DNA from: Candidatus Omnitrophota bacterium
GTDB taxonomy: Bacteria > Omnitrophota > Gorgyraeia > B26-G9
DNA: 64,000 bases
Direction: 5' to 3'
Assembly (NCBI GenBank): GCA_043814605.1
Contig: JBDRJV010000007.1
Location: 195,354 to 259,353 of the forward strand
Both the position numbers and the translations under genes were made by a program. Shown in pieces: positions 7,685 to 43,467 of the stretch (position 1 is its first letter; every line of letters starts with the position of its first letter). The notes below the pieces were generated by a model. The model made no database searches and was not told the origin of the DNA. It was given only the letters and a program-made list of their open reading frames with translations.

Positions 7685-8335
7685 ATGAAGAGACCTTTAA
7701 TTGCTCCGTCAATCTTATCGGCTGATTTTTGCTGCTTGGCAGCAGAAGTAAAGAGTGTAGAAAAAATTGGAGTGGACATGCTCCATGTTGATGTTATGGA
7801 TGGCCATTATGTGCCGAATATTACCATCGGGCCCGCAGTTGTGGCGGCTTTGAAAAAAAGAACAAAAGTTCCTTTAGATGTACATTTGATGATTGAAAAT
7901 CCATTATTTTTTTTAGACGATTTTATGAAAGCAGGTAGTTCCATAATCACTATACATATTGAGGCTTGCTCTTTAAATACAATAAAAAAAATCAGTCAAA
8001 AACTCAAAAAAGCAAAAATTAAAATGGGAATTAGCCTGAATCCTGAAACTCCGTTAAAAAAGATTAAAAAAACCCTTAGCTATGCGGATTTAATTTTAGT
8101 AATGAGTGTTAACCCTGGATTTGGCGGACAGTCGTTTATGCCGGTTGTGTTAGCTAAAATTAAAGCGTTACGGAAAATATTCAAGGGAGATATTGAGGTT
8201 GACGGCGGGATTACAGAAAAAACTGCAAAGCTTGTTTGCGCCTGCGGTGCGAATATTCTTGTTGCGGGTTCGTATATTTTTAATGCTAAAAATAGAAAAG
8301 CGGCAATAAATAGGTTAAAAAAATGCAAGCAATAA
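7685..8335 (+). CDS. rpe: Ribulose-phosphate 3-epimerase
   Basis: 216 aa; N-terminus IAPSILSADF…LHVDVMDGHYVPNITIGP and VMSVNPGFGGQSF are typical Rpe motifs. Confidence 0.9.
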   Translation: MKRPLIAPSILSADFCCLAAEVKSVEKIGVDMLHVDVMDGHYVPNITIGPAVVAALKKRTKVPLDVHLMIENPLFFLDDFMKAGSSIITIHIEACSLNTIKKISQKLKKAKIKMGISLNPETPLKKIKKTLSYADLILVMSVNPGFGGQSFMPVVLAKIKALRKIFKGDIEVDGGITEKTAKLVCACGANILVAGSYIFNAKNRKAAINRLKKCKQ

Positions 8336-9699
8336 AATTTGGTACAGACGGATTTAGAGGCATTATTGCGGATAATTTTACTTTTGAAAATGTAGAAAAA
8401 ATTGCTACGGCATTTGGACTTTATTTGCTCCAATGCAGAAACCCTAAGCTAATAAGGGGTGTGCTTATTGGCTATGACCGGCGTTTTTTATCTCAGGAGT
8501 TTGCCCAGGCTTTTGCGGATATTTTAGTGAATTTAGGTATCAATGTTCTACTAAGTGAAGAACCGGTGCCTACGCCTGCGGTAAGTTATTTTATCCGGAA
8601 AAATAAATTATTCTGCGGTGTAGTCATCACGGCCAGCCATAACCCGGCAAGTTTTAACGGTGTTAAAATTAAGAATGAATTCGGCGCATCAGTAGAGAGT
8701 AATGTTACTAAAGAAATAGAAAGAATAATAAGCAAAAATATAAATCCTAATTTTAAAGTAAAAATTTGTGGCAAAATAAAAAAAGTTAGAATTACAGATG
8801 ATTATGTCAGTTTTATAAAACGATATTTAAATATACCATTATTGAAAAAATTTCGGTATAAAATTGTAGTCGATAATATGCACGGAGTTGGAGCAGGTAT
8901 TATTGAAAAAATATTAAAAGATACTCCGATTAAAATTGAGAGCATTAGGAATTACAGAGATGTTCTTTTCGGCAGTGTGAACCCTGAGCCGATCGAGAAA
9001 AATTTAGGATTTTTACACAAGTTTATAAAAACCCATAAGTGTGATTTGGCTATTGCCTTAGACGGAGATGCAGACAGAATTGGCGCAATGAGCGCAAGCG
9101 GTCATTTTATTAGTTCGCATCAAGCAATTTGTTTATTATTACTGCATTTGATTGAAAATAAAAAATTCACCGGCAAAGTAGTAAAAAGTATTAATACAAC
9201 AACTATGGTTGATAAAATTACACGGTTTTACGGATTAGAACAAGAAGAGGTTCCAGTAGGATTTAAGTATATTGCGATAAAAATGTTAAAAGAAAATGTT
9301 TTGCTGGGAGGGGAAGAGTCCGGTGGAATTGGATTTAAAAATTATATGCCGGAGCGCGATGGGGTTCTTTCGGGGTTATTACTGCTAGAATTAATGGCGT
9401 ATAAAAGAAAATCAATAATTCAGATAATACGTGAAATGGAAAAAAAATTCGGCCGGTTTGTATATTTACGGCGCGATTTAAAAATTAATACGGTAAAAAA
9501 AATAAAACACCCTAAATTAATAAACGGTAAAAAGGTAGTTGAAATTAAAACTTATGATGGAACAAAGTTTATTTTGAATGATGAAAGCTGGCTTTTAATC
9601 CGTGCTTCCGGCACAGAGCCAATTGTCAGAATCTATGCAGAATCAGGGAATCTAATCAGCACAAAACAATTAATTAATTTTGGCGGTAATTTATTATAA
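8323..9699 (+). CDS. Phosphoglucomutase/phosphomannomutase family protein
   Basis: 458 aa; active-site loop TASHNP (GVVITASHNPASFNGVKI) and the Mg-binding DGDADR motif are present. Confidence 0.8.
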   Translation: MQAIKFGTDGFRGIIADNFTFENVEKIATAFGLYLLQCRNPKLIRGVLIGYDRRFLSQEFAQAFADILVNLGINVLLSEEPVPTPAVSYFIRKNKLFCGVVITASHNPASFNGVKIKNEFGASVESNVTKEIERIISKNINPNFKVKICGKIKKVRITDDYVSFIKRYLNIPLLKKFRYKIVVDNMHGVGAGIIEKILKDTPIKIESIRNYRDVLFGSVNPEPIEKNLGFLHKFIKTHKCDLAIALDGDADRIGAMSASGHFISSHQAICLLLLHLIENKKFTGKVVKSINTTTMVDKITRFYGLEQEEVPVGFKYIAIKMLKENVLLGGEESGGIGFKNYMPERDGVLSGLLLLELMAYKRKSIIQIIREMEKKFGRFVYLRRDLKINTVKKIKHPKLINGKKVVEIKTYDGTKFILNDESWLLIRASGTEPIVRIYAESGNLISTKQLINFGGNLL

Positions 9700-14086: not shown

Positions 14087-14712
14087 ATGCAGATAATATC
14101 TATTTTTAAGGTTTTGGCGGGTATGTTGATTTGTTATTTATTAGGAGCGGTTCCTGTGGCTTACCTAATGGTTAAAGCATTAAAAGGAGTGGATATCCGT
14201 GATTATGGCAGTGGTAATGTCGGGGCAACAAATGCCGCACGCGTGATTGGCAAGCTGCCTGCATTAGCCGTATTATGTTTTGACCTGGTTAAAGGAATTA
14301 TTGCGGTTACCTTGATCAGTTTTATTTTTACTTCCCTGCCGGGTATTTCTGATGAAGGGATTAAAGCTTTATTTGGCTTGAGTGTAGTTTGCGGGCACAT
14401 TTTTAATGTGTTTTTAAATTTTAAAGCTGGTAAAGGGGAGCCACAAGTGTCGGGGTAATTTTTGCTTTGGCGCCTTTGCCGATGTTTATGGGCATAATTA
14501 TTTTTGTTTTACTGGTTTGGTTTTTTAGATATATTTCTTTAGGTTCAATTGTGGTGAGCATGTTTCTGCCGTTTATCATGTTTTGGTCACATTGTCATTA
14601 TGCTTACGTAATTTTAAGTGCAGTTTTGTCAGTGATTATAGTATTTAAACATAAATCTAACATAAAAAGATTAATTATAGGCCGGGAAAGAAAGGTTTTT
14701 GAAAAAAAATGA
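14087..14712 (+). pseudogene. plsY: Glycerol-3-phosphate acyltransferase PlsY, interrupted by a 1-nt frameshift in a G-run
   Basis: The N-terminal 117 aa (GSGNVGATNAAR…HIFNVFLNFKAGKG) are in one frame. The PlsY continuation (GATSVGVIFALAPLPMF…KHKSNIKRLIIG) is in the -1 frame, open from 14434. The frames meet at GGGG 14435-14438. A fifth G would restore an intact ~205-aa PlsY. Confidence 0.6.
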
Positions 14713-15896: not shown

Positions 15897-15974
15897 CGGG
15901 GCGTGGCGCAGTTTGGCTAGCGCGCTTGAATGGGGTTCAAGAGGTCGGTGGTTCAAGTCCACTCGCCCCGACCA
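15897..15974 (+). tRNA. tRNA-Pro (anticodon GGG), CCA encoded
   Basis: Manually folded cloverleaf. 7-bp acceptor stem (CGGGGCG/CGCCCCG, with C1-G72 as is typical for bacterial tRNA-Pro), U8, 4-bp D-stem, 5-bp anticodon stem CUUGA/UCAAG with loop AU-GGG-GU, 5-nt variable loop, T-arm GGUGG-UUCAAGU-CCACU, discriminator A and 3' CCA. Confidence 0.88.
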
Positions 15975-16005
15975 GATAACTGAATCATTAATAAATTTTA
16001 ACATT

Positions 16006-16452
16006 ATGAAAAACCAGGAGTTAAAGGTAAGCCAAAAAATAAATTTTAAAGAGCAACGGAAATTTGTCCGGATCGATGCAAATTTTGTAGTAAGCTATTA
16101 TATTTATCCGAAACATATTAAAGAAACAGATATGACCCTAACTCGTAATTTAAGTTTAGGAGGGATTTGTTTTACCACGGATAAACATTTTCCTCCGGGG
16201 ATAATTTTGCAGATTACTTTAAGATTGCCTAAAATCTCTCATCTTGTTAAAATTTTAGGTGAAGTGGTTTATGTAAAACAGGAAAAAAATAAAAAAATAC
16301 TTTTTGATATCGGAATTAAATTTGTACAAATCAAAGAAGAAGATATTGTTACGCTTGAGGAAATAATTAATAATTGTGCTTCAGAGCTTAAAAAAATTAA
16401 TTTTAATCTTCAAAAAAAGAAAAAAAAAGAAAAAAGAAATGAAAATCATTAA
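16006..16452 (+). CDS. PilZ domain protein (putative c-di-GMP binding)
   Basis: PilZ signature motifs RxxxR (EQRKFVRID) and D/NxSxGG (TRNLSLGGICFTT). Start set to ATG 16006, because the ORF-track start 15913 lies inside the tRNA. The Lys-rich tail overlaps the hom start. Confidence 0.6.
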   Translation: MKNQELKVSQKINFKEQRKFVRIDANFVVSYYIYPKHIKETDMTLTRNLSLGGICFTTDKHFPPGIILQITLRLPKISHLVKILGEVVYVKQEKNKKILFDIGIKFVQIKEEDIVTLEEIINNCASELKKINFNLQKKKKKEKRNENH

Positions 16453-17734
16453 TGTGGGATTAATAGGGCTGGGGACAGTCGGTTGCGGAGTAGTTAAGGT
16501 TTTTGAGAAAAAATCGGAGATTCTCCAAAAAAAGCTGGGGATTAAGCTGGTTTTAAAACGTATCTGTGATATTGATTTAACCCGCCCCAGAGATGTGAAT
16601 ATTGACTCTAATATTTTAACCTCAGATGTAAATCAATTACTTGAGGATGACCAAATTCAAATTATTATTGAATTAATCGGTGGAATTCATCCGGCGAAGA
16701 GTTATGTTGTTCGCGCCTTAAAAAATAAAAAATATGTAGTTACAGCCAATAAAGCTCTTTTAGCCGAAGCCGGGGAAGAGATCTTTAATATTGCCCGTGA
16801 GAATGCAGTGGACGTGTATTTTGAAGCTAGTGTGGGTGGCGGCATACCGATTATCAAGGCATTAAAAGAAGGGTTTGTGGCTAATCAGGTTGAAGGAATA
16901 TTCGGAATAATTAACGGCACAAGTAATTATATTCTTACCCAAATGTCTCAAAAGGGATGTGAATTTAAAATTGCTTTAACTGAGGCACAAAAAAAAGGTT
17001 ATGCAGAGAAGGATCCCACTTTAGATATTGACGGGCTGGATTCGGCGCATAAAATAGCAATTTTAGCCCAACTCTGCTTTAACCAATCTATCCAGACAAA
17101 AGATGTTTTTGTGGAGGGGATCAGAGATATTGATTTAAGTGATATTAGATATGCAGATGAACTGGGGTTTTGTGTGAAACTTTTAGCAATTGCAAAAAAA
17201 AACGGTAATGAATTACAATTGCGGGTGCATCCCACACTTTTATCAAAAAGGAGTTTATTGGCTAAAATTAATGGCGTATATAATGCAATTTTAATTAATG
17301 CAGATTTAGTCGGAGAATGCTTGTTCTACGGCCAGGGAGCCGGGCAAGCACCGACGGCAAGCGCGGTAATGAGCGATATAGTATGTGTGGCTATGAATAT
17401 ATCCGGCGAAATTTTGGCGGATAAAAATATCCCCGAAATAAAAAATAGCACAGAAAAAATTTCGTCAATTGATGATCTGGAAACCCGCTATTATATGCGG
17501 TTTGCGGCATTGGATGAGCCGGCGGTTTTATCCAGTATTGCCACAATACTGGGTAAATTCGGAATAAGCATTCATAGTGTCATACAAAAAGGCAGACGTC
17601 AGGAGCAGGCTGTGCCGATTGTGATGATGACACATGAAGCAAAAGAAAACAATTTAAAAAAGGCATTAGTTGAAATTGATCAACTACCCGTAATAAAAAG
17701 GAAAACTGTAGTTATCCGGGTAGAAAGAAATTGA
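16439..17734 (+). CDS. hom: Homoserine dehydrogenase
   Basis: NAD-binding N-terminus MKIINVGLIGLGTVGCG, catalytic domain (…AEKDPTLDIDGLDSAHKIAILA…) and a C-terminal ACT domain. Start chosen at 16439. Confidence 0.9.
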   Translation: MKIINVGLIGLGTVGCGVVKVFEKKSEILQKKLGIKLVLKRICDIDLTRPRDVNIDSNILTSDVNQLLEDDQIQIIIELIGGIHPAKSYVVRALKNKKYVVTANKALLAEAGEEIFNIARENAVDVYFEASVGGGIPIIKALKEGFVANQVEGIFGIINGTSNYILTQMSQKGCEFKIALTEAQKKGYAEKDPTLDIDGLDSAHKIAILAQLCFNQSIQTKDVFVEGIRDIDLSDIRYADELGFCVKLLAIAKKNGNELQLRVHPTLLSKRSLLAKINGVYNAILINADLVGECLFYGQGAGQAPTASAVMSDIVCVAMNISGEILADKNIPEIKNSTEKISSIDDLETRYYMRFAALDEPAVLSSIATILGKFGISIHSVIQKGRRQEQAVPIVMMTHEAKENNLKKALVEIDQLPVIKRKTVVIRVERN

Positions 17735-17758: not shown

Positions 17759-18829
17759 ATGCATGGGCAATACAGAGGTTTGATTCATAAGTATCGCGAG
17801 TATCTTCCTGTATCGGATAAAACGCCGATTGTGACATTGCAGGAAGGAAACACGCCATTAATTTTTGCTCCGAATGTTAGTAAATTAGTGGGAGCGAATG
17901 TAGAGGTTTATCTTAAATATGAGGGAGTTAATCCTACAGGATCTTTTAAGGATCGGGGCATGACTTTAGCGATCTCTAAGGCACGGGAAGCGGGTTCTTG
18001 TGCAGTTATGTGTGCTTCTACCGGAAATACTTCAGCTTCGGCTGCAGCTTATAGTGCCTGTTGCGGGCTTAAATGCATTGTTTTGATCCCAGAGGGATCT
18101 ATTGCTTTAGGAAAATTAGCGCAAGCACTTATTCACGGGGCTGAAGTTTTAGCAGTTGAGGGAAATTTTGACCAGGCATTAGAACTTGTGCGTCAAATTA
18201 CCGAAAAGTACCAGGTAACTTTAGTAAATTCGCTAAATCCTTTTCGGATTCAGGGCCAAAAAACCGGAGCATTTGAAATTTGTGATTATTTAGAACAATC
18301 TCCTGATTTTTTAGCTATTCCAGTAGGCAATGCCGGAAATATTACTGCGTATTGGCAGGGTTTTAAGGAATATTATGAGAAGTCATTAATTAAAAAATTA
18401 CCAAGAATGTTAGGGTTTCAGGCTGCAGGTTCTGCGCCGATAGTGCGGGGTGAAGTTGTTCCTGATCCGAAAACAATTGCTACAGCAATTAAAATTGGTA
18501 ATCCGGCTAGTTGGCGCCAAGCAGAAGCCGCGCGGGATGATTCAGGCGGGCTTATTGATCTGGTCAGTGATGAAGAGATTTTAGACGCTTATAAAATTCT
18601 TGCCCGGCAGGAAGGTATTTTTGTTGAACCAGCATCAGCAGCTTCGATTGCCGGAATTATTAAATTGTCTCATGCAGGGTTTTTTAAAAAATTAGGTAAG
18701 ATTAAAATTGCCTGTATTTTAACTGGTCATGGGTTAAAAGACCCGGATCGGGCGATAAAATGTATCCAAGCGCCTAAAATTATTCCGCCCACGCTGGAAG
18801 CAGTATTAGAGGAAACAGGTATAAAATAA
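17759..18829 (+). CDS. thrC: Threonine synthase
   Basis: 356 aa; PLP-lysine motif NPTGSFKDRGMT; fold-type II PLP enzyme architecture. Confidence 0.9.
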   Translation: MHGQYRGLIHKYREYLPVSDKTPIVTLQEGNTPLIFAPNVSKLVGANVEVYLKYEGVNPTGSFKDRGMTLAISKAREAGSCAVMCASTGNTSASAAAYSACCGLKCIVLIPEGSIALGKLAQALIHGAEVLAVEGNFDQALELVRQITEKYQVTLVNSLNPFRIQGQKTGAFEICDYLEQSPDFLAIPVGNAGNITAYWQGFKEYYEKSLIKKLPRMLGFQAAGSAPIVRGEVVPDPKTIATAIKIGNPASWRQAEAARDDSGGLIDLVSDEEILDAYKILARQEGIFVEPASAASIAGIIKLSHAGFFKKLGKIKIACILTGHGLKDPDRAIKCIQAPKIIPPTLEAVLEETGIK

Positions 18830-18868
18830 TTTTAACGTGATTAAAATTTAAATTAAAAAAATAAAAAA

Positions 18869-20089
18869 ATGAAAAATAAACGTAAAATAAAATATATAGT
18901 TTTAGTACCCGACGGAATGGCAGATTATCCATTAGAAGAATTAGGACAGCGTACGCCGCTTGAGGTTGCCAGAACTCCTAATATGGATAGTTTAGTACAA
19001 AAGGGCAGGATTGGACTATCCTCTTTTGTTCCCGAGGGGTTAACACCGGGAAGTGATGTGGCTAATTTAGCGATTTTTGGTTATGATCCTCAAAAATTTT
19101 ATTCCGGCCGCGCTTCTTTAGAAGCGGCAAATTTAGGGATTGATGTTAAGGATGACCAGATTGCGTTTCGCTGTAATTTTATTACGGAAGAAAATAATTT
19201 ACTGAGTGATTATAGTGCCGGGCATATTACGACAAAAGAAGCGCATGTTTTAATTAAGGTGCTTAATAAATATTTAGCTAATGATCAGCTGCGATTTTAC
19301 CCGGGAGTTAGTTATCGGCATTTAATGGTTATTTATAATCCCGGTAAAGAATTTCTAAAATTAAAATGCATACCGCCGCATGATATTATAGGTAAAAAAA
19401 TTTCTCAGTATTTACCGAAAGGTAAGGGTAAGGAAGAAATCCTGGAAATTATGATTAAATCGCAGGAAATTTTAAAAAATCATGAAATTAACCAGGTCAG
19501 GGTTGATTTAAAAGAAAATCCGGCAAATATGATTTGGCTGTGGGGCCAGGGTAAAAAAGTAGCCCTGCCTTCCTTTAAGACTAGATTTAATTTAGAAGGT
19601 TCAGTTATTTCAGCTGTAGATTTAATCAAAGGCATTGCTTGTTCCATTGGGCTTGAGCCAGTAAATGTACCTGGGGCAACCGGATATTATGATACAAATT
19701 ATGAAGCTAAGGCTGAGTATGCAATTAAAGAACTACACAATAAGGATTTTGTTTTTGTACATGTGGAAGCGCCGGATGAAGCTGGCCATAACGGAGATAC
19801 AAGAGAAAAAATTAAAGCAATTGAAAATTTTGATCGATATATTGTCAGCCGGGTTTTACAAGAGGCTGAAAACATGCCGAATATTCGTATATTAATCTGC
19901 CCGGATCATCCAACGCCGATTGCTTTAAAGACGCATACTGCTGATCCTGTGTGTTTTTTGATGTACGGACAGGGAATTTGTGCAGATAGCGCTCAGGTAT
20001 TCAATGAAAAAGAAGCTAAGCAAAGCAGTTTTATTTTTTCAAACGGGTTTGAATTAATGGAAACATTTATAAATAAAATTGAGATTTAA
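18869..20089 (+). CDS. apgM-family metalloenzyme (cofactor-independent phosphoglycerate mutase, archaeal-type); by context the proposed non-ThrB homoserine kinase
   Basis: 406 aa; N-terminus YIVLVPDGMADYPLEELGQRTPLEVARTPNMD and the C-terminal alkaline-phosphatase-like metal site (VHVEAPDEAGHNGD…PDHPTP) are typical of the apgM family. It lies immediately downstream of hom-thrC, and no thrB is present in the window. Confidence 0.7.
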   Translation: MKNKRKIKYIVLVPDGMADYPLEELGQRTPLEVARTPNMDSLVQKGRIGLSSFVPEGLTPGSDVANLAIFGYDPQKFYSGRASLEAANLGIDVKDDQIAFRCNFITEENNLLSDYSAGHITTKEAHVLIKVLNKYLANDQLRFYPGVSYRHLMVIYNPGKEFLKLKCIPPHDIIGKKISQYLPKGKGKEEILEIMIKSQEILKNHEINQVRVDLKENPANMIWLWGQGKKVALPSFKTRFNLEGSVISAVDLIKGIACSIGLEPVNVPGATGYYDTNYEAKAEYAIKELHNKDFVFVHVEAPDEAGHNGDTREKIKAIENFDRYIVSRVLQEAENMPNIRILICPDHPTPIALKTHTADPVCFLMYGQGICADSAQVFNEKEAKQSSFIFSNGFELMETFINKIEI

Positions 20090-20201
20090 CATAATATTTA
20101 AGGCAACCTGCAATCTTATTTACTGCCTATTATAACTTAACTCATTAAATATTAAATACTTAAATGTTCATTTTTTTAAAATTAGAGCGTAGGGAAGGAG
20201 C

Positions 20202-20230
20202 TTGACAGAAGAAAATAAGTATGCTATACT
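20202..20230 (+). promoter_or_regulatory. Sigma70-type promoter (TTGACA-17-TATACT)
   Basis: -35 TTGACA at 20202-20207, a 17-nt spacer, -10 TATACT at 20225-20230. Predicted TSS near 20237. Confidence 0.55.
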
Positions 20231-20236
20231 TATTAC

Positions 20237-20475
20237 AGAAGTTAATAAATCTTTTTATTAGTTTAAAAGAAGTTTAAAATTTATATCCGAAAATTCGCTA
20301 ATTTAAAAAGCGAATCCCGCCTTATCATGGCGGGAGGCAAATCCTTAAGAAATTAGGGATGCGCAAAGCTACGGGTCTAACGCAACAAGCTATGATCGCC
20401 GGGCGCACCGAGAACGAACAAGTTTGATGAAAGATAGCCGAGCTGCCGAGATATATGCAGTTCGGCTATTTTATT
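20237..20475 (+). ncRNA. Candidate small RNA / structured leader (~240 nt) of unknown family
   Basis: Bounded by the consensus promoter at 20202-20230 and an intrinsic terminator (10-bp stem AGCCGAGCUG/CAGUUCGGCU at 20436-20467, followed by AUUUUAUU). It contains GC-rich hairpins (AUUCGCU…AGCGAAU; UCCCGCC-UUAUCAU-GGCGGGA at 20315-20335) in an AT-rich background. No ORF of 60 aa or more. Confidence 0.35.
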
Positions 20476-20708
20476 AATTAAGGAAGGAGGATAAATGCGA
20501 AGTAAACAAAGTGTGCAAACTATAAGTTTAAATTATAATTTGGCATCATATATATTTTATAAATTTTTTATAAAAAAAGTTTGCATAAAAAATCAGAAAG
20601 GAGGAGACAGTTCACATTTATTAGATGATTTCATCATTATTATTTTAAATTTTTTTATGGCCTAATATATAATTTATAAAAATAACCTACACAAAGGGGG
20701 GGATTAAA

Positions 20709-27760: not shown

Positions 27761-28573
27761 ATGGAATTAGATTTAAAAAAAATTATTAAAAAAGAGTTTT
27801 TTTTAATTGCCGGGCCTTGCGTGATTGAGTCAGAAAAACTTTGTTTAGAACAAGCAAAATTGATCCGGGAAATTGCAAAGAGGGTTAATATCCATTTTAT
27901 TTTTAAAGCTAGCTTTGATAAAGCCAATCGAACAGCAGTAGATTCTTTTCGTGGCCCGGGATTAAAAAAAGGCTTATCAATACTTAAAAAAATCAAACAG
28001 ACATTAAAAATACCCATATTAACTGATGTGCACAGTCTTGACCAAGTTAGAGCTTGTGCCAGTGTTGTTGATATTATCCAAATCCCTGCATTATTATCGC
28101 GTCAAACAGATTTAATTGTTGGCGCAGCGCGCACTAAAAAAATCATCAATATTAAAAAAGGGCAGTTTATGGCTCCCTCAGATATGCAGAATGTAATTAA
28201 AAAGGCAGAATCCGCAGGCAATAAAAATATTATCTTGACTGAACGCGGAGTTTGTTTTGGGTATCATAATCTGGTGAGTGATATGCGTTCAATACAGATT
28301 ATGCAAAAATTTAATTATCCGGTTGTTTATGATGCAACTCACAGTGTGCAGCTGCCGAGTGCGGGAGGGGAAAAATCCGCGGGTGAGAGTCAATTTGTGA
28401 TTCCTTTGGCTTTGGCCGCAGTTGCTGCAGGCTGTAATGGATTATTTTTAGAAGTGCACAAAAACCCGAAAAAAGCACTTTGTGATGGGCCGAATATGAT
28501 TGCTATAAAAGATCTGGAGAAGTTATTAGGCAAGGCAAAAAAAATCTGGGAGACTGTAAATGAAAAAAAATAG
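27761..28573 (+). CDS. kdsA: 3-deoxy-8-phosphooctulonate (Kdo-8-P) synthase
   Basis: 270 aa; DAHP/KDO8P synthase family (…FIFKASFDKANRT…IPILTDVH…DATHSVQLP…). Confidence 0.9.
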   Translation: MELDLKKIIKKEFFLIAGPCVIESEKLCLEQAKLIREIAKRVNIHFIFKASFDKANRTAVDSFRGPGLKKGLSILKKIKQTLKIPILTDVHSLDQVRACASVVDIIQIPALLSRQTDLIVGAARTKKIINIKKGQFMAPSDMQNVIKKAESAGNKNIILTERGVCFGYHNLVSDMRSIQIMQKFNYPVVYDATHSVQLPSAGGEKSAGESQFVIPLALAAVAAGCNGLFLEVHKNPKKALCDGPNMIAIKDLEKLLGKAKKIWETVNEKK

Positions 28574-29528
28574 TTTTCAGGCGATTGCTAAAAAAGTTTT
28601 AAAAGTGGAAGCAAAAGCAATTCATGATTTACTGCCCAGAATAAATAAGAATTTTGATAAAGCTGTAAACCTAATTGCGCAATGCAGCGGGCGCGTGGTG
28701 ATTACGGGAATGGGAAAGCCCGGATTAATCGGCAGTAAAATTTCTGCTACTTTGGCAAGTTTAGGTGTACCCAGCTTATTTTTACATCCCGCTGAAGCTG
28801 TACACGGGGATTTGGGCCGGGTAGCTTGCGATGATATTATCATTGCAGTTTCTAACAGCGGTATGACTGAGGAAATAACCCGGCTTTTACCGATTATAAA
28901 AAAAATGGGGGTTAAATTAATCAGCTTTACCGGGAACCTAAAATCTCCGCTGGCTAAATATAGTGATGTAGTGCTAAATGTAAAAGTGGAAAAAGAAGCC
29001 TGCCCTTTTAATTTAGCTCCCACAGCCAGTACAACCGCAACCTTGGCTATGGGTGATGCATTAGCGGTTGCAGTTTTAGAAAAAAAAGGTTTTAAAATTG
29101 AAAATTATGCTTTTTACCACCCGGGAGGGAGTCTAGGGAAAAAATTGCTGAAAGTCAAGGATCTGATGCGTAAGGGGCTGCAAAATCCGATTGTTTATGA
29201 AAAGACTAAGGTGAAAACAGTACTTTTAAAAATTACCCGTTCAAGAGCCGGATGCGCTTGTATTGTGAATAAAAAAAAGCAGCTTATCGGAATTTTTACT
29301 GACGGAGATTTACGCCGCCATTTAGAAACAGAGCCGGATTTGTTATCTATGGAAGTAAAGAATGTGATGAGCCGCAATCCCATTACAATTAATAAAGAAA
29401 AGTTAGCACAAGAAGCCTTAAAAATACTCAAGGATAAAAAAATTGATGAAATACCGGTGGTGGATGAAAAAAAACATCCGGCCGGGCTTTTAGATGTACA
29501 GGATTTACTAAAAGCAGGTATTGTATGA
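28560..29528 (+). CDS. kdsD: Arabinose-5-phosphate isomerase (SIS domain plus tandem CBS domains)
   Basis: 322 aa; SIS domain (GRVVITGMGKPGLIGSKISATLASLG) followed by a CBS pair; positioned between kdsA and kdsC. Confidence 0.9.
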   Translation: MKKNSFQAIAKKVLKVEAKAIHDLLPRINKNFDKAVNLIAQCSGRVVITGMGKPGLIGSKISATLASLGVPSLFLHPAEAVHGDLGRVACDDIIIAVSNSGMTEEITRLLPIIKKMGVKLISFTGNLKSPLAKYSDVVLNVKVEKEACPFNLAPTASTTATLAMGDALAVAVLEKKGFKIENYAFYHPGGSLGKKLLKVKDLMRKGLQNPIVYEKTKVKTVLLKITRSRAGCACIVNKKKQLIGIFTDGDLRRHLETEPDLLSMEVKNVMSRNPITINKEKLAQEALKILKDKKIDEIPVVDEKKHPAGLLDVQDLLKAGIV

Positions 29529-30040
29529 ACAGAGAAAAAGCAAAAAAAATTAAAATTTTAATTACCGATGTTGACGGAGTATTAACTAACGCGATGATCG
29601 GCTATGGAAATTATAACGATACCTACCGGCAATTTAATATGCAGGATGGTTTTGGCTTGGTCTTGTTAAAAAAAACAGGGATAAAAACTGCGATTATTAC
29701 GGGCAAATCATCTCGATCTCTGGATCGCCGGGCACGGGAATTAAAATTTGATTTAGTTTGTAAGGATGTCGAAGTAAAAATGAAAGCGTTTAAGAAAATT
29801 TTAAAAAAATTTAAATTAACCCCGTCTGAAGCCTGCTACATCGGGGATGATTTATTGGATTTAGCGGTTTTAAAAAATGCCGGATTATCCGTTTGTGTAC
29901 CGGAAGCGCCTGAGGAACTTAAAGATACAGTTGATATTGTGACTAAAAAAAGCGGTGGTGCTGGTGCGGTACGAGAAATAATAGAGTTTATCCTAAAAGC
30001 CCAGGATAAATGGAGCGATATTGTTGAAAAATATCTATAA
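29525..30040 (+). CDS. kdsC: 3-deoxy-D-manno-octulosonate 8-phosphate phosphatase (HAD family)
   Basis: 171 aa; HAD motif I ILITDVDGVLTN, then …GDDLLDL…; position in the Kdo cluster. Confidence 0.85.
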   Translation: MNREKAKKIKILITDVDGVLTNAMIGYGNYNDTYRQFNMQDGFGLVLLKKTGIKTAIITGKSSRSLDRRARELKFDLVCKDVEVKMKAFKKILKKFKLTPSEACYIGDDLLDLAVLKNAGLSVCVPEAPEELKDTVDIVTKKSGGAGAVREIIEFILKAQDKWSDIVEKYL

Positions 30041-30055
30041 AAATAGAGAGAAATA

Positions 30056-30784
30056 ATGGAAGATCATTTACTGCGCACGGAATTACTTTCTAAATCATAT
30101 AAAAAAAAACAAATCGTAAAGCAGGTGAGTATTTCAATTAGAAAAGCTGAGGTTGTCGGGTTACTCGGTCCGAACGGTGCCGGGAAAACCACCACCTTTT
30201 ATATGGTTGTGGGATTAATTAGTCCGGATAACGGAAAAATTTTTTTTGATAATCGGGAAATTACGCATATGCCCATGTTTAAAAGGGCTCGCTGCGGAAT
30301 TGGATATCTTTCCCAGGAGCCGTCAATTTTTCGAAAATTAACAGTGGAAGAGAATATCATTGCGGTACTGGAGACTTTACCGTTAACAAAGCCAGAAAGA
30401 AAAAAACGTTTAGATGAATTGCTGGAAGAGTTGAGAATGACTCATTTAGCTAAAAGTAAAGCTTATATGCTCTCTGGCGGAGAACGCCGGCGTTTGGAAA
30501 TAACCCGCTGTTTAGTGACTAATCCCTCTTTTATTTTACTGGATGAGCCATTCTCCGGGGTAGATCCGATCGCGGTATTTGAAGTACAACAGATTATTTC
30601 AAATTTAAAGAAAAAAGGCCTGGGAATTTTGCTCACTGACCATAATGTGCGAGAAACATTGAGCATAACAGACCGCAGCTATATAATGGCGGAAGGAAAA
30701 ATTTTTATTTCCGGAACTGCCCAAGAACTTATTAATAATCCGGAAGCAAAAAAAATCTATTTAGGGGAACGTTTTGCCATGTAG
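30056..30784 (+). CDS. lptB: LPS export ABC transporter ATP-binding protein
   Basis: 242 aa; Walker A GPNGAGKTT, signature LSGGERRRLEI, Walker B ILLDEP; ~241-aa length and position after kdsC match LptB. Confidence 0.85.
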   Translation: MEDHLLRTELLSKSYKKKQIVKQVSISIRKAEVVGLLGPNGAGKTTTFYMVVGLISPDNGKIFFDNREITHMPMFKRARCGIGYLSQEPSIFRKLTVEENIIAVLETLPLTKPERKKRLDELLEELRMTHLAKSKAYMLSGGERRRLEITRCLVTNPSFILLDEPFSGVDPIAVFEVQQIISNLKKKGLGILLTDHNVRETLSITDRSYIMAEGKIFISGTAQELINNPEAKKIYLGERFAM

Positions 30785-30853
30785 TAGTTTCTTGACGCTG
30801 ATTAAAAATAATGATAATATACAGCGAGATTATACACAAAAAGGAGGAAAATA

Positions 30854-31213
30854 GTGGAAGTGAGAATCAGTGGCCGGCATTTTGAAATCACAAACGCTTT
30901 AAAAGTTTATTCCTATAAAAAAGCAGAAAGTTTTAATAAATATTTGAATAACATCATTGATGTCCATATTATTTTAAGCGTGGAGAAATTCCGGCAATGT
31001 GCGGAAATTTCGGTTTTAGCAAAAAAACTGAAAATTACAGAAAAAAGCATTGAAACAGACATGTATGCTGCCATTGACAAGGTCTGTTCACGCATTGAAA
31101 AAACTCTGCGGCGTCATAAAGATAAAATAAAAAGTCACAGAAAAAAAGATAATAAAAACAAAAATTTAGAAGGAACCTCAGTTGAGTTTAATGAAGAGGG
31201 AGGAAGCGAATGA
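30854..31213 (+). CDS. hpf: Ribosome hibernation promoting factor (HPF/RaiA family)
   Basis: 119 aa; GTG start with RBS AAGGAGG 6 nt upstream; …VRISGRHFEITNALKVY…; basic C-terminal tail. Confidence 0.85.
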   Translation: MEVRISGRHFEITNALKVYSYKKAESFNKYLNNIIDVHIILSVEKFRQCAEISVLAKKLKITEKSIETDMYAAIDKVCSRIEKTLRRHKDKIKSHRKKDNKNKNLEGTSVEFNEEGGSE

Positions 31214-31671
31214 AAATAATGGATTTTTTAAAAGAAAAGGCAATAACTGCAAATCTGAAAGCAACCACAAAGGAAGAAGTGATCGAAGAACTTGTCGAAC
31301 TATTATCCTGTGCCCAACCGATTAAGCATAAAGAAAAATTAGTGAAGATTCTTTTAGAACGTGAAGCCTTAGGTTCCACTGGTATTGGACAAGGGGTGGC
31401 GATCCCGCACGGAAAAAGTGATAATATGAAGGAATTAATTGCCGCATTCGGAATATCTCAAAGAGGGGTTGATTTTAATTCACTAGACGGTGAACCGGTT
31501 TATTTATTTTTTCTCCTGGTTGCGCCGGAAGATTCTGCGGGCCCGCACCTAAAAGCTTTGGCCCGAATATCCAGAATCCTAAAAGATAAATATTTTCGGG
31601 AAACTTTACGAGGTTCTCCGGATGAAAAAGCAATTTTAAAAGTTATCAAGCAGGAAGACACAAGTAAATAA
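31210..31671 (+). CDS. ptsN: PTS IIA-like nitrogen regulatory protein (EIIA-Ntr)
   Basis: 153 aa; PTS EIIA type-2 fold with the phosphorylatable His in GVAIPHGK. Confidence 0.8.
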   Translation: MKIMDFLKEKAITANLKATTKEEVIEELVELLSCAQPIKHKEKLVKILLEREALGSTGIGQGVAIPHGKSDNMKELIAAFGISQRGVDFNSLDGEPVYLFFLLVAPEDSAGPHLKALARISRILKDKYFRETLRGSPDEKAILKVIKQEDTSK

Positions 31672-31676
31672 AAATT

Positions 31677-32927
31677 ATGCGTATTTTAAAATGGCTTTAT
31701 CCAGGAATGAAAGTTAAGCGCTGGATTTTTTTAAGTGCTTTGGGAATAATTTTTGTTGTTTTAGGTACAATAGAAAGTGTTGCAGAAATAAAAAATAAAG
31801 GAATTTCTGCGCTAGGATTATTATTATTATTGCTCGGAATTATTCTAATCTTTACCGGTATTAAGAAAATGGTTAAATCCTTTATTGCAATTTTTATGCC
31901 GGGGCACAGAGAAAAGGAATTAGTTGATATTGTTTATAAAAAAAGACAATTAAGCCGCGGGCCGAAAATTGTGGTTATTGGAGGCGGCACGGGGTTATCC
32001 GTTCTTTTACACGGGCTAAAAGAATATACATCAAATTTAACCGCGATTGTGACCGTGACTGATGACGGGGGAAGTTCTGGGCGCTTACGGGAACAGTTTA
32101 ATATTTTACCCCCCGGAGATATTCGTAACTGTTTAGTGGCTTTAGCGGATGCTGAACCTTTAATGGGAGAGTTGTTTCAATTTCGTTTTCCCGCGGGAAC
32201 AGAGTTAGCCGGGCACAATTTTGGTAATTTATTCATTACGGTAATGACAAAATTAGTTGGCGATTTTGATAAGGCGATCAAAGAGTCCAGTAAGGTTTTG
32301 GCAATTAGCGGACAAGTAATCCCCTCCACTTTAAAAACCGTAAGTTTAGTGGCTGAACATTTAGACGGAAATAAAACCTATGGGGAGACGAGTATTTCAA
32401 AAAGTATGAGTCCGATCAATAAAGTGCAGCTTATCCCGGATAATTGTATGCCGACAGATAGCGCACTGGAAGCAATTGCTAATGCCGAAGCAATAGTTTT
32501 AGGCCCGGGGAGTTTGTATACTAGTGTGTTACCAAATTTAATAATTAATAAAATTCCCGAAGCGATTGAAACATCGCCTGCAGTTAAAATTTATATCTGT
32601 AATGTGATGACCCAATCCGGGGAAACAGACGGATTTTCGGCTTATGAGCATATTAAGGCAATTCAAAAGCATACGCAAAATAATATCATTGATTATTGTA
32701 TTGTAAATACCGGCCGAGTACCGGATAAATTTTTAGAAAAATACCGGAAACAAAATTCTGTACCGGTAAATCCGGATATTCAGAAAATCCGCGATGCCGG
32801 AATAACCGTCTTAGCTGATAATGTAATTAGCACACAGGATTATGTGCGGCATAATTCTAAAAGGATTGCTAAAAAAATTATTGATTTACTGCTGGAATTA
32901 AAATATCAAGGATCTGTTTTTGTTTAA
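31677..32927 (+). CDS. YvcK/UPF0052 (CofD-like) family protein, gluconeogenesis factor-like
   Basis: 416 aa; conserved VVIGGGTGLSVLLHGLK…TVTDDGGSSGRLR core. It has an extra N-terminal TM segment. Confidence 0.8.
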   Translation: MRILKWLYPGMKVKRWIFLSALGIIFVVLGTIESVAEIKNKGISALGLLLLLLGIILIFTGIKKMVKSFIAIFMPGHREKELVDIVYKKRQLSRGPKIVVIGGGTGLSVLLHGLKEYTSNLTAIVTVTDDGGSSGRLREQFNILPPGDIRNCLVALADAEPLMGELFQFRFPAGTELAGHNFGNLFITVMTKLVGDFDKAIKESSKVLAISGQVIPSTLKTVSLVAEHLDGNKTYGETSISKSMSPINKVQLIPDNCMPTDSALEAIANAEAIVLGPGSLYTSVLPNLIINKIPEAIETSPAVKIYICNVMTQSGETDGFSAYEHIKAIQKHTQNNIIDYCIVNTGRVPDKFLEKYRKQNSVPVNPDIQKIRDAGITVLADNVISTQDYVRHNSKRIAKKIIDLLLELKYQGSVFV

Positions 32928-32930
32928 CTT

Positions 32931-33212
32931 ATGGATAATGCTCAACATATAGTAAAAAAGAAAGTTGTGATAAAAAATAAAACCGGTTTGCATGCTCGGC
33001 CGGCAGCCCTTTTTGTGCAGATTGCGAATAAATTTGACAGTGAGATAACTGTTAAAAAAGGCAGGGAACAAGTTAACGGAAAATCAATAATGGGAATTCT
33101 CATGCTTGCCGCCGGGCAAGGCCAGGAAGTTTTAATTATCGCCGAAGGTCCGGATGCGCAAAATGCAGTGGAGGCATTAGAAAAAATATTATTAACTGAT
33201 GAAAATAAATAA
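32931..33212 (+). CDS. ptsH: Phosphocarrier protein HPr (or NPr)
   Basis: 93 aa; active-site GLHARPAA with the phosphorylatable His. Confidence 0.9.
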   Translation: MDNAQHIVKKKVVIKNKTGLHARPAALFVQIANKFDSEITVKKGREQVNGKSIMGILMLAAGQGQEVLIIAEGPDAQNAVEALEKILLTDENK

Positions 33213-34968
33213 AACTGATAATCATAACGAAAGAAAAATGCTCAAAGGTATTGCGGTATCTCCCGGGATTGCCATCGGGCGGGTTTTTGTCTGGGACAGC
33301 GAGGAATACACAATTAGTAAACACCTTATTCCTGAGAACAGTATTCCGCTTGAAATTACCCGTTTTGAAGAAGCTTTGATAAAAACAAGGTCAGAAATAT
33401 TAGAGATTCAAAAAAAGATTTCTAAAGAAATGGGCTTTGAGCATGCCGAAATATTTAATGCGCATTTGTTAGTTTTAGAAGATCGCATGCTGATTGAGGA
33501 AGTGATCAATAAGATCAAAAAAGAAAAGAATAACGTTGAACATGTATTTGTTACTATTTTAAAAAAATATGCGGATATTTTTTCTAAAATGGATGATGAA
33601 TACCTGCGCGAACGGCTGATTGATATTCAGGATGTGGGAAAAAGAATTATCCGAAACCTCCTAGGTAAGCAGAGACAGGGGCTAAAGGATTTAAAAGAAA
33701 AAGTAATTGTTGTCGCGACAAATCTTTCGCCTTCGGATACAGCCTTAATGCATAAAGATAAAGTCATTGCTTTTGCTACAGATATGGGCGGCAGAACTTC
33801 TCATACCGCAATTCTTGCGCGTTCTCTAGAAATTCCTGGTGTTGTCGGGTTAAAAACTCTAACCCCCTCTGTAAAAAATGGCGATATTATCATTATTGAT
33901 GGGAATAATGGCGTAGTTTTAATTAATCCAGTAAAAACAATAATTAAGAAATATCAGAGAGAGAAAAAGAAATTTCTTGATTTTGAAAAAGGATTATCGC
34001 GTTTAAAAACATTGCCCGCGATTACCCAAGATGGACACAGTGTTGTGATCGGGGCGAATATTGAATTTCCCGAGGAAATGGATTCAGTTATTGCGCATGG
34101 ATCACAAGGCATCGGATTATATCGTACGGAATATATGTATTTAAACCGGACAGATTTACCAACGGAAGAAGAACATTTTCAAGCCTATAAAAAAGTAGCT
34201 CAATCTATGAAAAAAAATCCCGTCGTCATTAGAACCATGGATATCGGGGGTGATAAATTTGTTTCACATTTAGATATTCCGTATGAGATGAATCCCCTGA
34301 TGGGACACCGGGCAATTCGATTTTGTTTAGCCCAGCCGGAAATATTTAAAGTACAGCTGCGGGGAATTTTAAGAGCGAGTATTTTTGGCAACCTAAAAAT
34401 AATGTACCCGATGATTTCTGGTTTAAATGAGCTCAGACAGGCTAACGCAATTTTAAAAGAGGTTAAACAAGAATTAAAAAAGAAACATATCCAGTTTGAT
34501 AACGATATTGAGGTTGGCATAATGATTGAAGTGCCATCGGCAGCATTAATTGCGGATATTTTGGCAAAAGAAGTTGCTTTCTTTAGTATCGGCACTAACG
34601 ATTTAATACAATATTCTCTGGCCGTAGACCGGATCAATGAAAAAATTGCTTACCTATATGAACCAGCGCATCCGGCCGTATTACGCTTAATTAAATCGAT
34701 AATTGATATTGGCCATAATGCCGGACTTTGGGTGGGGATGTGTGGTGAAATGGCTGCAGAACCGGTTTACACATTACTGCTTTTAGGCATGGGGCTGGAT
34801 GAATTTAGTGCCAGTGCAGTAGCTATCCCGGAAATAAAAAAAATTGTACGTTCCGTAACCATTGAACAAGCACGCCAAATAGCTGAACACGTTTTAGAAT
34901 TATCCGCTGCGGATGAAATTCTTGCATATGCCAATTTAAAATTGAAGGAATTAATACTGCAAAAATGA
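33199..34968 (+). CDS. ptsI: Phosphoenolpyruvate-protein phosphotransferase (PTS Enzyme I)
   Basis: 589 aa; phospho-His region GGRTSHTAILARSLEIPGVVG and a PEP-utilising C-terminal TIM barrel. An alternative start at ATG 33238 (MLKGIAVSPGIA) is possible. Confidence 0.9.
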   Translation: MKINKTDNHNERKMLKGIAVSPGIAIGRVFVWDSEEYTISKHLIPENSIPLEITRFEEALIKTRSEILEIQKKISKEMGFEHAEIFNAHLLVLEDRMLIEEVINKIKKEKNNVEHVFVTILKKYADIFSKMDDEYLRERLIDIQDVGKRIIRNLLGKQRQGLKDLKEKVIVVATNLSPSDTALMHKDKVIAFATDMGGRTSHTAILARSLEIPGVVGLKTLTPSVKNGDIIIIDGNNGVVLINPVKTIIKKYQREKKKFLDFEKGLSRLKTLPAITQDGHSVVIGANIEFPEEMDSVIAHGSQGIGLYRTEYMYLNRTDLPTEEEHFQAYKKVAQSMKKNPVVIRTMDIGGDKFVSHLDIPYEMNPLMGHRAIRFCLAQPEIFKVQLRGILRASIFGNLKIMYPMISGLNELRQANAILKEVKQELKKKHIQFDNDIEVGIMIEVPSAALIADILAKEVAFFSIGTNDLIQYSLAVDRINEKIAYLYEPAHPAVLRLIKSIIDIGHNAGLWVGMCGEMAAEPVYTLLLLGMGLDEFSASAVAIPEIKKIVRSVTIEQARQIAEHVLELSAADEILAYANLKLKELILQK

Positions 34969-38435: not shown

Positions 38436-39443
38436 ATGGCCTTGTATAAAGAACTCGGTTTAACAAATACTAAAGAAATGTTTAAAAAAGCATTCGCAGG
38501 TAAGTATGCAGTACCCGCTTATAACTTTAATAATATGGAGCAAATTCAAGCGATTATTGTTGCTTGTGTGGAAACTCAATCTCCCGTAATTCTACAGGTA
38601 TCTAGCGGTGCTCGCAAATATGCAAATAAAATATTATTACGTTATATGGGGCAGGGAGCTGTCGCAATGATGCGTGATCTAGCCAGAGAAAAAAGATTAA
38701 AAGAAATCCCTATAGCTTTACATTTAGATCATGGTGATACTTTGGAATTATCTAAATCCTGTATTGATTCTGGATTTTCATCGGTAATGATTGACGGTTC
38801 ACATCATTCGTTTGAAGATAATATTAAATTAACACGCCAAGTGGTTGATTATGCACATCAGTTTGATGTCACAGTAGAAGGAGAATTAGGGGTTTTAGCG
38901 GGAATCGAGGATGAAGTGTCTGCAGAAAAATCCACTTACACACATCCAGAAGAAGTTATTGAATTCGTGGAGAAAACCGGGGTTGATTCATTGGCAATTT
39001 CTATTGGTACCTCCCACGGTGCAAATAAATTTAAACCCGAACAATGCACTAAAAATAAAGATGGGATATATATTCCTCCGGAATTAAGATTTGATATTTT
39101 AGAGGAAATTGAAAAGAAAATACCCGGGTTTCCGATTGTTTTACACGGATCATCCAGCGTACCTGTAGAAGCGGTGAATATGATTAATACTCATGGGGGG
39201 AAATTAAAGGACTCTGTAGGTATTCCGGAAGAACAGATCAGAAAGGCAACTAAATCCGCAGTGTGTAAGGTTAATATTGATTCTGATGGCCGGCTTTGGA
39301 TGACTGCGGCAATTCGAAAACATTTTAGTGATAAACCCGCGGATTTTGACCCGCGTCAATATTTAGGCCCTGCGCGGGAAGCGTTGATTGCCATGTACAA
39401 GCATAAAAATAAAAACGTCTTAGGCTCTGCAAATAGAGTTTAA
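38436..39443 (+). CDS. fba: Class II fructose-bisphosphate aldolase
   Basis: FBA class II TIM-barrel motifs (…IALHLDHGDT…GELGVLAGIED…ISIGTSHGA…). Start chosen at ATG 38436 with RBS AGAGGAAGGGG upstream, rather than the ORF-track start 38391. Confidence 0.9.
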   Translation: MALYKELGLTNTKEMFKKAFAGKYAVPAYNFNNMEQIQAIIVACVETQSPVILQVSSGARKYANKILLRYMGQGAVAMMRDLAREKRLKEIPIALHLDHGDTLELSKSCIDSGFSSVMIDGSHHSFEDNIKLTRQVVDYAHQFDVTVEGELGVLAGIEDEVSAEKSTYTHPEEVIEFVEKTGVDSLAISIGTSHGANKFKPEQCTKNKDGIYIPPELRFDILEEIEKKIPGFPIVLHGSSSVPVEAVNMINTHGGKLKDSVGIPEEQIRKATKSAVCKVNIDSDGRLWMTAAIRKHFSDKPADFDPRQYLGPAREALIAMYKHKNKNVLGSANRV

Positions 39444-39464
39444 ATATAGTTTATATAGCAAAAA

Positions 39465-39501
39465 AAAGCTTTGTTTTAATAAATAAAACAGAGCTTTTTT
39501 T
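39465..39501 (+). terminator. Rho-independent terminator
   Basis: AAAGCTTTGTTTTA-ATAAAT-AAAACAGAGCTTT hairpin (one mismatch) followed by TTTTTTTT. Confidence 0.55.
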
Positions 39502-39975
39502 TGTTTGGGAAAAAGGGGCTGTGCCGCCTGCGGCCAGCATACTGTGTAATGTTAAATGTTTAATGTGTAATGTAGCAAGTAGAGAGTAGAGAGAATTTCA
39601 GATGCTGCTTTTCTATTTGATGCTTTTTTTAGTCTATAGTCTTTTGTCTGTTGATCCCGCAATTGCGGGACCCCGAAGATATCCCAGGGAAGTTTCTTCA
39701 TTCGGGGCTGAGGACTAGTTTCGTCGCTTGGTTTCTAAAGGGGGGATAAAAACCAGGCTTGTCCATTTTTCATTGACTAACGGATGATAGAAGCGTATTA
39801 TTTATGTATTACAAAAATTCGGTTTTAATAGCTAATCTAATATCATGATATTACGCAGGAAATGCGAAATGTTTCCAGGCAAAAACTTGTTAGTTGAAGA
39901 GAAAAACAATAGGGAATTACTGAAAAATAGACTGAAAGTATATTAACTGTTATCTGCAAATAAATAAGGAGAAAT

Positions 39976-40191
39976 ATGAAAAAAATAATTAAACCCCTCC
40001 TGATTTTGGTAATTCTATTCTTGCTTGTTTATTCTGGTATGGCTCAAAAAGCTCATAAGGTAAAAGAAGTAAGAATGAGATTTAAACTTCAAGAAAAAGA
40101 AATATCTGAAAAAGAATATAATGAATTTATAAAAAATCATACATTTATTAATACACTCTTAGATCCAAAATCTGTTCTTAATGTTGACTAA
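39976..40191 (+). CDS. Small secreted hypothetical protein (71 aa)
   Basis: Strong RBS AAGGAG 7 nt upstream; N-terminal signal peptide MKKIIKPLLILVILFLLVYSGMAQ; lies in the accessory intergenic island. Confidence 0.5.
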   Translation: MKKIIKPLLILVILFLLVYSGMAQKAHKVKEVRMRFKLQEKEISEKEYNEFIKNHTFINTLLDPKSVLNVD

Positions 40192-40282
40192 AAAAACAGA
40201 TAACAAGTCAATCCACCTGACCTTCCTCGCGGCTTCGCCGCTTCGTAAGGCAGCTGATTTTTGTGTTATAAGGAGACAAAAA

Positions 40283-40662
40283 ATGAAAAAAATAATACTT
40301 GCAACGACACTATTCTTCTTAATGCTAGGTGTGGGATATGCTCAGGATAATAACATACAATTACAAAAAGTTACAGGAACATTCTATAAAGCCATAAAGG
40401 CAAATGTCCCATATTATATTGAACTTGACGGCTCCGTTGGGATAGGAAATATAAAAAAAGGCTTGGACTGAAGGGTGAAATTCTAAATAACATTGAAGAA
40501 GGTTCAAGGATATTAGTAAAAGGCATCGTAAAAACTTCTTGGCATAATGGGGGAAGTCAAGATAATCCTTCGCCTTTCCCTGCAGATTGGTTAATATATA
40601 TGGATGTAAAAGAAGTCATAATAACAGATAAAGATACACCTGTAGAAAAATTAGTATTTTAA
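40283..40662 (+). pseudogene. Small secreted hypothetical protein gene interrupted at an A7 run (or requiring a -1 frameshift)
   Basis: The ATG at 40283 has RBS AAGGAGA and a signal peptide (MKKIILATTLFFLMLGVGYAQD). The frame stops at TGA 40469-40471. The -1 frame is open from 40429 to TAA 40660-40662 with no ATG of its own (…LGLKGEILNNIEEGSRILVKGIVKTSWHNGG…). The frames meet at the A7 run 40453-40459. Confidence 0.4.
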
Positions 40663-40716
40663 TCATTAATAAACGGGCCGAGGCAAGAGCGGCCCCTACA
40701 ATTTCCAAAATTATAA

Positions 40717-42352: not shown

Positions 42353-42361
42353 AACATTTAA

Positions 42362-43456: not shown

Positions 43457-43467
43457 ATTTTTATTTA

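Follow-up and report, generated by a model that had tools for sequence, protein, structure and literature searches.

HomK/ThrB2 proteins and the Omnitrophota locus

Homoserine dehydrogenase (Hom) yields L-homoserine, and threonine synthase (ThrC) consumes O-phospho-L-homoserine, the product of the ATP-dependent homoserine kinase ThrB of the GHMP kinase family. As a substitute for ThrB the TIGRFAMs curators reportedly put forward the family TIGR02535, 'proposed homoserine kinase'. Here we analysed a 64-kb stretch of DNA from a Candidatus Omnitrophota bacterium (contig JBDRJV010000007.1; the whole stretch is referred to as the window), in which hom and thrC are followed by a gene for a 406-aa protein of the ApgM family, that is, a relative of the archaeal-type cofactor-independent phosphoglycerate mutases (PGMs). 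L-homoserine, the product of Hom, is the proposed substrate of this third gene product. The original prediction, made from the sequence of the window, had treated the homoserine kinase role of such proteins as a TIGRFAMs proposal; the proposal exists, but the role has since been tested genetically.

Price and colleagues reported that mutants of Bacteroides thetaiotaomicron in BT2402 require threonine (PMC7311316). The name ThrB2 was given to the family by Ashniev et al., who found the occurrence of thrB2 and thrB to be complementary, with 278 of 300 thrB2 genomes lacking thrB (PMC9026213). In the GapMind 2026 preprint, BT2402 and the diverged DET_RS08350 of Dehalococcoides mccartyi rescued an Escherichia coli thrB::kan strain; the family was renamed HomK, its catalytic serine was identified as S56, and E299, a position occupied by Lys in the mutases, as a specificity residue (bioRxiv 10.1101/2024.10.14.618325).

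We concluded that the third gene very probably encodes HomK (ThrB2, TIGR02535), supplying O-phospho-L-homoserine to ThrC in place of a GHMP-type ThrB, and that its product is almost certainly not a glycolytic PGM. The activity of this particular protein is predicted from the genetics of its orthologues. Like BT2402 and DET_RS08350, it belongs to the TIGR02535 family with a score above the cutoff, has the two-domain fold with the catalytic Ser and an intact set of metal ligands, has a Glu in the position that sets specificity, and is encoded next to hom and thrC in the same orientation and in an operon-like linkage. It differs from these type members in its host, an Omnitrophota bacterium as opposed to Bacteroidota (BT2402) or Chloroflexota (DET_RS08350). 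Because HomK/ThrB2 is already described with genetic support, the Omnitrophota protein is regarded as another member of a known family.

Family assignment, active site and predicted mechanism

The Pfam domains of the third gene product, PhosphMutase and Metalloenzyme, are those of archaeal-type cofactor-independent PGMs, and neither Pfam nor NCBIfam gave a match of the protein to GHMP_kinases_N or GHMP_kinases_C. It is 100% identical to NCBI MFH1459244.1, from a metagenome-assembled genome (MAG) of Candidatus Omnitrophota (264-kb contig), which is named "cofactor-independent phosphoglycerate mutase". With 550.4 bits the protein scored above the trusted cutoff of TIGR02535 (446.3), and its score on the general ApgM model TIGR00306 was lower (523.3 bits). 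Both equivalog models for archaeal PGM were failed (NF003104, 331.9 against a cutoff of 489; NF003160, 212.3 against a cutoff of 468). The opposite pattern was obtained for the solved archaeal mutases, which passed NF003104 and were low on TIGR02535: 2zkt scored 590.5 on NF003104, 323.4 on TIGR02535 and 323.8 on the mutase-named model NF003242, and 3idd scored 525, 273.3 and 278 on the same three models. A separation from the solved mutases was also seen in a neighbour-joining tree, in which the protein grouped with sequences from Omnitrophota; the large clade that contains them is set off from 2zkt and 3idd by a long branch.

Aligned to these two structures, the protein keeps the nucleophilic Ser62 and the metal-ligand sets D15/S62/D346/H347 and D303/H307/H356. 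Three residues ahead of the metal-binding Asp303 stands Glu300 (HVEAPDEAGH); the mutase motif K-x-x-D-x-x-G-H is absent, and Lys occupies position 300 in 2zkt (HFKPTDAAGH) and 3idd (NIKATDVAGH). Glu300 was invariant among the close relatives (119 of 119) and occurred in 134 of the 150 representatives of 50%-identity clusters, and position 300 is the sole column in the whole protein with a clade-conserved Glu and with Lys in both 2zkt and 3idd. By exclusion, not by direct alignment, E300 would be the published HomK specificity switch (E299 in BT2402, Lys in the mutases). As a stand-in for BT2402 the cluster representative P0203 was considered, whose numbering fits the published D9, S56, E299, D346 and H347. 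It was rejected, and the fit was taken as a coincidence and not used, because its gene context (aIF5A/deoxyhypusine synthase) shows an archaeal origin.

Further positions distinguish the clade from the two solved PGMs, namely Trp225 for Arg, Tyr149 for His (beside the invariant Arg150), Glu304 for Ala or Val and Trp223 for Leu, together with Pro55 and Asp251. Judged from the sequences, the net effect of these changes is a loss of positive and a gain of negative charge.

The AlphaFold model of the protein was of very high confidence, with a predicted local distance difference test score (pLDDT) of 96.2 and a predicted template modelling score (pTM) of 0.92. Its closest solved structure was 2zkt (TM 0.82-0.87), together with 3kd8 and 3idd, and further matches were bacterial cofactor-independent PGM, phosphopentomutase and alkaline phosphatases; there was no solved structure of the HomK type among the structural matches. 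In sequence the protein is 35% identical to 2zkt (E=1.6e-68) and 32-35% identical across the solved archaeal mutases. Thus it shares with ApgM (PH0037, PDB 2zkt; Thermoplasma acidophilum, PDB 3idd/3kd8) the fold, the phospho-serine nucleophile and the binuclear metal site. Unlike ApgM, it fails NF003104, has the replacements at positions 300, 225, 149 and 304, and is encoded in a context of threonine synthesis, not of glycolysis.

HomK would accordingly be classed among the two-metal phosphotransferases with the archaeal-type cofactor-independent PGM fold (alkaline-phosphatase superfamily). By analogy with the mutases, the reaction is expected to follow a ping-pong course, in which a phosphorylated donor would transfer its phosphate to Ser62 in the binuclear metal site and the phospho-Ser62 enzyme would hand it on to L-homoserine at the gamma-hydroxyl. 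Glu300, in the place of the Lys of true mutases, may hold the amino group of this substrate, perhaps with the help of Glu304. ThrC would then turn O-phosphohomoserine into threonine and phosphate and so pull the reaction forward.

The phosphate donor of HomK is probably other than ATP, and phosphoserine, phosphoglycerate and phosphoenolpyruvate (PEP) have each been suggested. The GapMind preprint makes the case that the donor is not ATP and probably not phosphoglycerate, and suggests phosphoserine as a possibility (bioRxiv 10.1101/2024.10.14.618325). We speculate that the acidic, less cationic pocket is better suited to zwitterionic donors, phosphoserine for example, than to PEP or phosphoglycerate. 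It is conceivable, though on balance doubtful, that Glu300, Glu304, Trp225 and Tyr149 together identify HomK as a phosphotransferase that is specific for amino acids, independent of ATP and supplied by a phospho-amino acid, for example O-phosphoserine. If true, threonine synthesis in Omnitrophota and in the many other phyla with this enzyme would be tied to serine metabolism and not to ATP.

The predicted product, O-phospho-L-homoserine, is the same as that of ThrB, and so are the pathway and the operon position. HomK differs from ThrB in its unrelated fold and chemistry; it lacks a GHMP domain and an ATP-binding motif, and its donor is probably not ATP. A precedent for a non-nucleotide donor is found in ThrH, the phosphoserine:homoserine phosphotransferase of Pseudomonas aeruginosa, which can replace ThrB (bioRxiv 10.1101/2024.10.14.618325), and HomK may work like ThrH if its donor is phosphoserine. 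The two proteins are not homologous; ThrH has a HAD fold with an Asp nucleophile, in contrast to the alkaline-phosphatase-type fold and Ser nucleophile of HomK.

Some of the relatives depart from the common type. Two Pacearchaeota sequences (P0137 and P0154, the latter from locus L082) have Lys at the specificity position, keep Trp225 and are nested in the tree inside the Glu clade, not with the true mutases; no threonine genes lie near P0154, and the two may be secondary reversions or have a different specificity. Methanosarcinales and other archaea bear Glu-type proteins with very high TIGR02535 scores (578 bits in Methanolobus), so that the clade extends beyond the bacteria. At the loci of Methanomethylovorans sp. 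(L039) and Methanolobus profundi (L059) an aspartate kinase gene is found upstream on the opposite strand, instead of same-strand hom and thrC; L032, L057 and L072 are further loci with such Glu-type proteins. Additionally, about eight cluster representatives from outside the window (P0126, P0128, P0129, P0138, P0159, P0166, P0195 and P0229) are 970-1,120 aa long. They consist of a HomK-like N-terminal domain, an acidic/lysine-rich linker, a predicted transmembrane helix and a region of 600-700 aa, and look like a cytoplasmic enzyme fused to a membrane-anchored extracellular region. These C-terminal regions are homologous to each other (22-35% identity) and no Pfam domain was found in them, so that the fusion partners are uninformative on function.

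Gene context and alternative explanations

A Pfam scan of all 51 plausible open reading frames (ORFs) of at least 110 aa in the window, 48 of them besides hom, thrC and homK, detected no GHMP kinase domain, and inspection of the one long ORF-poor stretch (Table 1) gave none either. This agrees with the original prediction, which had stated that the window holds no ThrB or other GHMP kinase. Nor was a second phosphoglycerate mutase found by the scan. The ORF at 8323-9699 encodes an unrelated hexose-phosphate mutase of the PGM_PMM type (Table 1). A tblastn search with an approximate E. coli ThrB query gave no match in the window or in the 80 related loci described below, a result of little weight. 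The original prediction had also pointed to a true glycolytic neighbourhood around fba elsewhere in the window. The fba gene is present, but it stands beside metK, ahcY and a nucleotidyl transferase gene and thus not in a glycolytic cluster.

To compare the gene context, one genome per species was scanned. The 80 loci obtained belong to Omnitrophota, Planctomycetota, Nitrospirota, Desulfobacterota, Actinomycetota, Latescibacterota and Methanosarcinales, and their identity over the best tblastn segment is 46-60%. Every ORF lying up to 5 kb from the homologue was taken as a neighbour, and the neighbours were clustered without prior labels. The commonest neighbour was aspartate kinase, present in 45 of the 80 loci and typically about 140 nt downstream, followed by hom (37/80), citramalate synthase (36/80) and thrC (32/80). 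These four almost always share the strand of the homologue, and at least one of aspartate kinase, hom and thrC was found within 5 kb in 58 of the 80 loci. The identities of neighbours were checked with curated models (NF005155, 604 bits; TIGR00977, 747 bits). No recurrent neighbour hinting at the phosphate donor (serA, serC, glycerate kinase or a PEP-related gene) was detected in the loci examined. The gene in the window differs from the 45 relatives in having neither aspartate kinase nor citramalate synthase downstream, and neither gene occurs anywhere in the window. Their place downstream of homK (compared over 20090-20708) is taken by a riboswitch and an RHS gene. As these two elements sit where relatives have aspartate kinase, a rearrangement or insertion 3' of homK is suggested.

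Three other explanations of the third gene product were weighed. That it is a genuine glycolytic or gluconeogenic cofactor-independent PGM lying next to thrC by chance appears highly improbable to us. The homology and the fold it has in common with archaeal PGMs (as measured against 2zkt above), the kept catalytic Ser and metal ligands, the match to NF003242 and the absence of another PGM from the window would all suit such an enzyme. The equivalogs passed by the solved PGMs are failed, however, Glu replaces Lys at the specificity position and Trp replaces Arg at 225, the orthologues show a threonine phenotype, and threonine-gene linkage in 58 of the 80 loci across phyla would be unexpected for a glycolytic enzyme. 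As to NF003242, its scores and those of TIGR02535 moved in parallel in all ten proteins tested; the two models capture a single clade that goes by two names, and the mutase label of the former is therefore no independent evidence.

More could be said for a bifunctional or promiscuous enzyme, acting as homoserine phosphotransferase and also as the phosphoglycerate mutase of the cell, for example with phosphoglycerate as donor. Phospho-enzyme chemistry permits this, homology makes phosphoglycerate the 'most obvious' donor (bioRxiv 10.1101/2024.10.14.618325), and the window shows no other PGM; against the last point, 64 kb tells little of the remaining ~95% of the genome. A pocket that has lost Lys300, Arg225 and His149 and gained two Glu disfavours an anionic, amine-free substrate. 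Furthermore, no co-occurrence of HomK and glycerate kinases was found, a point against phosphoglycerate as the donor, and D. mccartyi holds a separate PGM besides its HomK (bioRxiv 10.1101/2024.10.14.618325). We consider a double role of this kind improbable. An aspartate-family enzyme with another substrate, which forms L-threonine O-3-phosphate or acts as a phosphatase on a pathway intermediate, receives very little credence from us. Glu-bearing relatives linked to cobD have been proposed to form threonine phosphate (bioRxiv 10.1101/2024.10.14.618325), and genetics alone did not initially prove the formation of O-phosphohomoserine (PMC7311316). The gene studied here adjoins hom and thrC, though, and not cobD; its product, in contrast to the cobD-linked proteins, scores higher on TIGR02535 than on TIGR00306; and the complementation of thrB, achieved with two members of the family, shows the formation of O-phosphohomoserine (bioRxiv 10.1101/2024.10.14.618325).

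Several points weigh against the assignment as HomK. The protein passes NF003242, "cofactor-independent phosphoglycerate mutase", with 564.8 against a cutoff of 426. The absence of ThrB covers 64 kb of the genome, and the remainder may hold a thrB or be devoid of any other phosphoglycerate mutase. On the genetic side, a first attempt at complementation failed (PMC7311316) and the later complementation by BT2402 was weak, with an increase in optical density of 0.14 in 47 h (bioRxiv 10.1101/2024.10.14.618325); in the literature searched we found no in-vitro characterisation of any HomK. The Glu of the 80 loci is not independent, because the scan pattern included the Glu motif. E300 was mapped to E299 indirectly, as described above, and the ligand numbers D274, H278 and H325 of the preprint fit no consistent offset to the numbering of the protein. 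The charge contrast is drawn from two mutase sequences, 2zkt and 3idd. Taken against these points, the match to TIGR02535, the failure on NF003104, Glu300, the intact catalytic residues and the linkage in the related loci uphold the non-orthologous homoserine kinase of the original prediction.

The value of the finding lies mainly in the correction of annotation, and it offers no special handle on the questions of donor or structure. In this genome the apparent thrB gap in threonine synthesis is closed, and a false "phosphoglycerate mutase" is removed from the reconstruction of glycolysis. Of the top 120 hits, all that bear a name are called mutases. NF003242 puts this name on a clade that TIGR02535 and the recent genetics identify as homoserine phosphotransferase, and HomK proteins are probably misnamed systematically as mutases in PGAP-annotated genomes. 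Many MAG proteins are thus probably misnamed, and metabolic models that rely on the mutase name will lose a threonine step and gain a spurious glycolytic one.

Layout of the locus and other features of the window

The original prediction had placed hom, thrC and a gene of the ApgM family in this order, and ORFs, strand, coordinates and families were all borne out. The three genes lie head to tail on the + strand (Table 1), with spacers of 24 nt between hom and thrC and 39 nt between thrC and homK. A Shine-Dalgarno-like site, AAGGAA, is located 5' of thrC. No convincing terminator was seen between hom, thrC and homK. The three genes are probably carried on one transcript. The ATG at 16439 was favoured as the start of hom over the upstream GTG at 16376, because NF004976 aligns end to end with the shorter product.

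Table 1. Coordinates of the genes and other features in the 64-kb window.
Feature	Position	Strand	Support or remark
GspC-like protein of type II secretion, secretin, 846-aa peptidase C25	264-4901		consecutive
Hexose-phosphate mutase	8323-9699		PGM_PMM type
plsY, first ORF	14087-14458		PF02660, profile 1-90
plsY, second ORF	14467-14712		PF02660, profile 104-164
tRNA-Pro(GGG)	15897-15974		upstream of hom
PilZ-domain ORF	15913-16452		mechanical ORF, upstream of hom
hom, homoserine dehydrogenase with C-terminal ACT domain	16439-17734	+	NF004976 528.6 bits, 1-430 of 431 aa; Pfam NAD_binding_3, Homoserine_dh, ACT
thrC, pyridoxal phosphate-dependent threonine synthase	17759-18829	+	TIGR00260 equivalog 322.8 bits (cutoff 167.1); Pfam PALP
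homK/thrB2, homoserine phosphotransferase (predicted)	18869-20089	+	PF10143 and PF01676; TIGR02535
Promoter-like site	20202-20230		TTGACA-17-TATACT, near consensus
c-di-GMP-I riboswitch	20326-20450		RF01051, 48.2 bits (cutoff 35)
RHS/YD-repeat protein, 2,287 aa	20709-27572		dockerin type I domain at aa 1012-1069
kdsA, kdsD, kdsC, lptB, hpf, ptsN, CofD/YvcK-like, ptsI	27761-34968		all on one strand
fba	38391/38436-39443		beside metK and ahcY
ORF-poor stretch, 1.5 kb	39443-41010		small ORFs only
Transposase-like fragment	40747-40890		REP-associated/IS200 type, by eye
lptF/lptG, phosphoribosyltransferase-domain protein, glycosyltransferase	41264-45571	-	only minus-strand gene block

Upstream, the stop of the PilZ-domain ORF overlaps the start of hom by 14 nt, and the PilZ gene may therefore share the transcript of hom, thrC and homK. 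The mechanical ORF runs through the tRNA-Pro, and thus the true start of the PilZ gene should be some later ATG. A leader or riboswitch upstream of hom was not detected, as Rfam gave no match. Downstream of homK, the near-consensus promoter-like site and the cyclic di-GMP (c-di-GMP-I) riboswitch belong to the next gene and therefore mark the 3' boundary of the hom-thrC-homK unit. This next gene encodes the RHS/YD-repeat protein, which has the look of a giant protein, secreted or on the surface, under the control of c-di-GMP.

Elsewhere in the window, plsY (glycerol-3-phosphate acyltransferase) is divided over two ORFs, either by a frameshift or stop (pseudogene) or by an assembly error. The consecutive genes for the GspC-like protein and the secretin are followed by that of a peptidase of the C25 (gingipain) family with a propeptide domain. 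The genes from kdsA to ptsI, including ptsN (EIIA-2) and ptsI (enzyme I), are a regulatory neighbourhood of the nitrogen phosphotransferase system type beside lipopolysaccharide genes. The ORF-poor stretch, the only long one of its kind in the window, contains the transposase-like fragment and borders the minus-strand block, at which the otherwise steady positive GC skew falls to zero (~40-46 kb).

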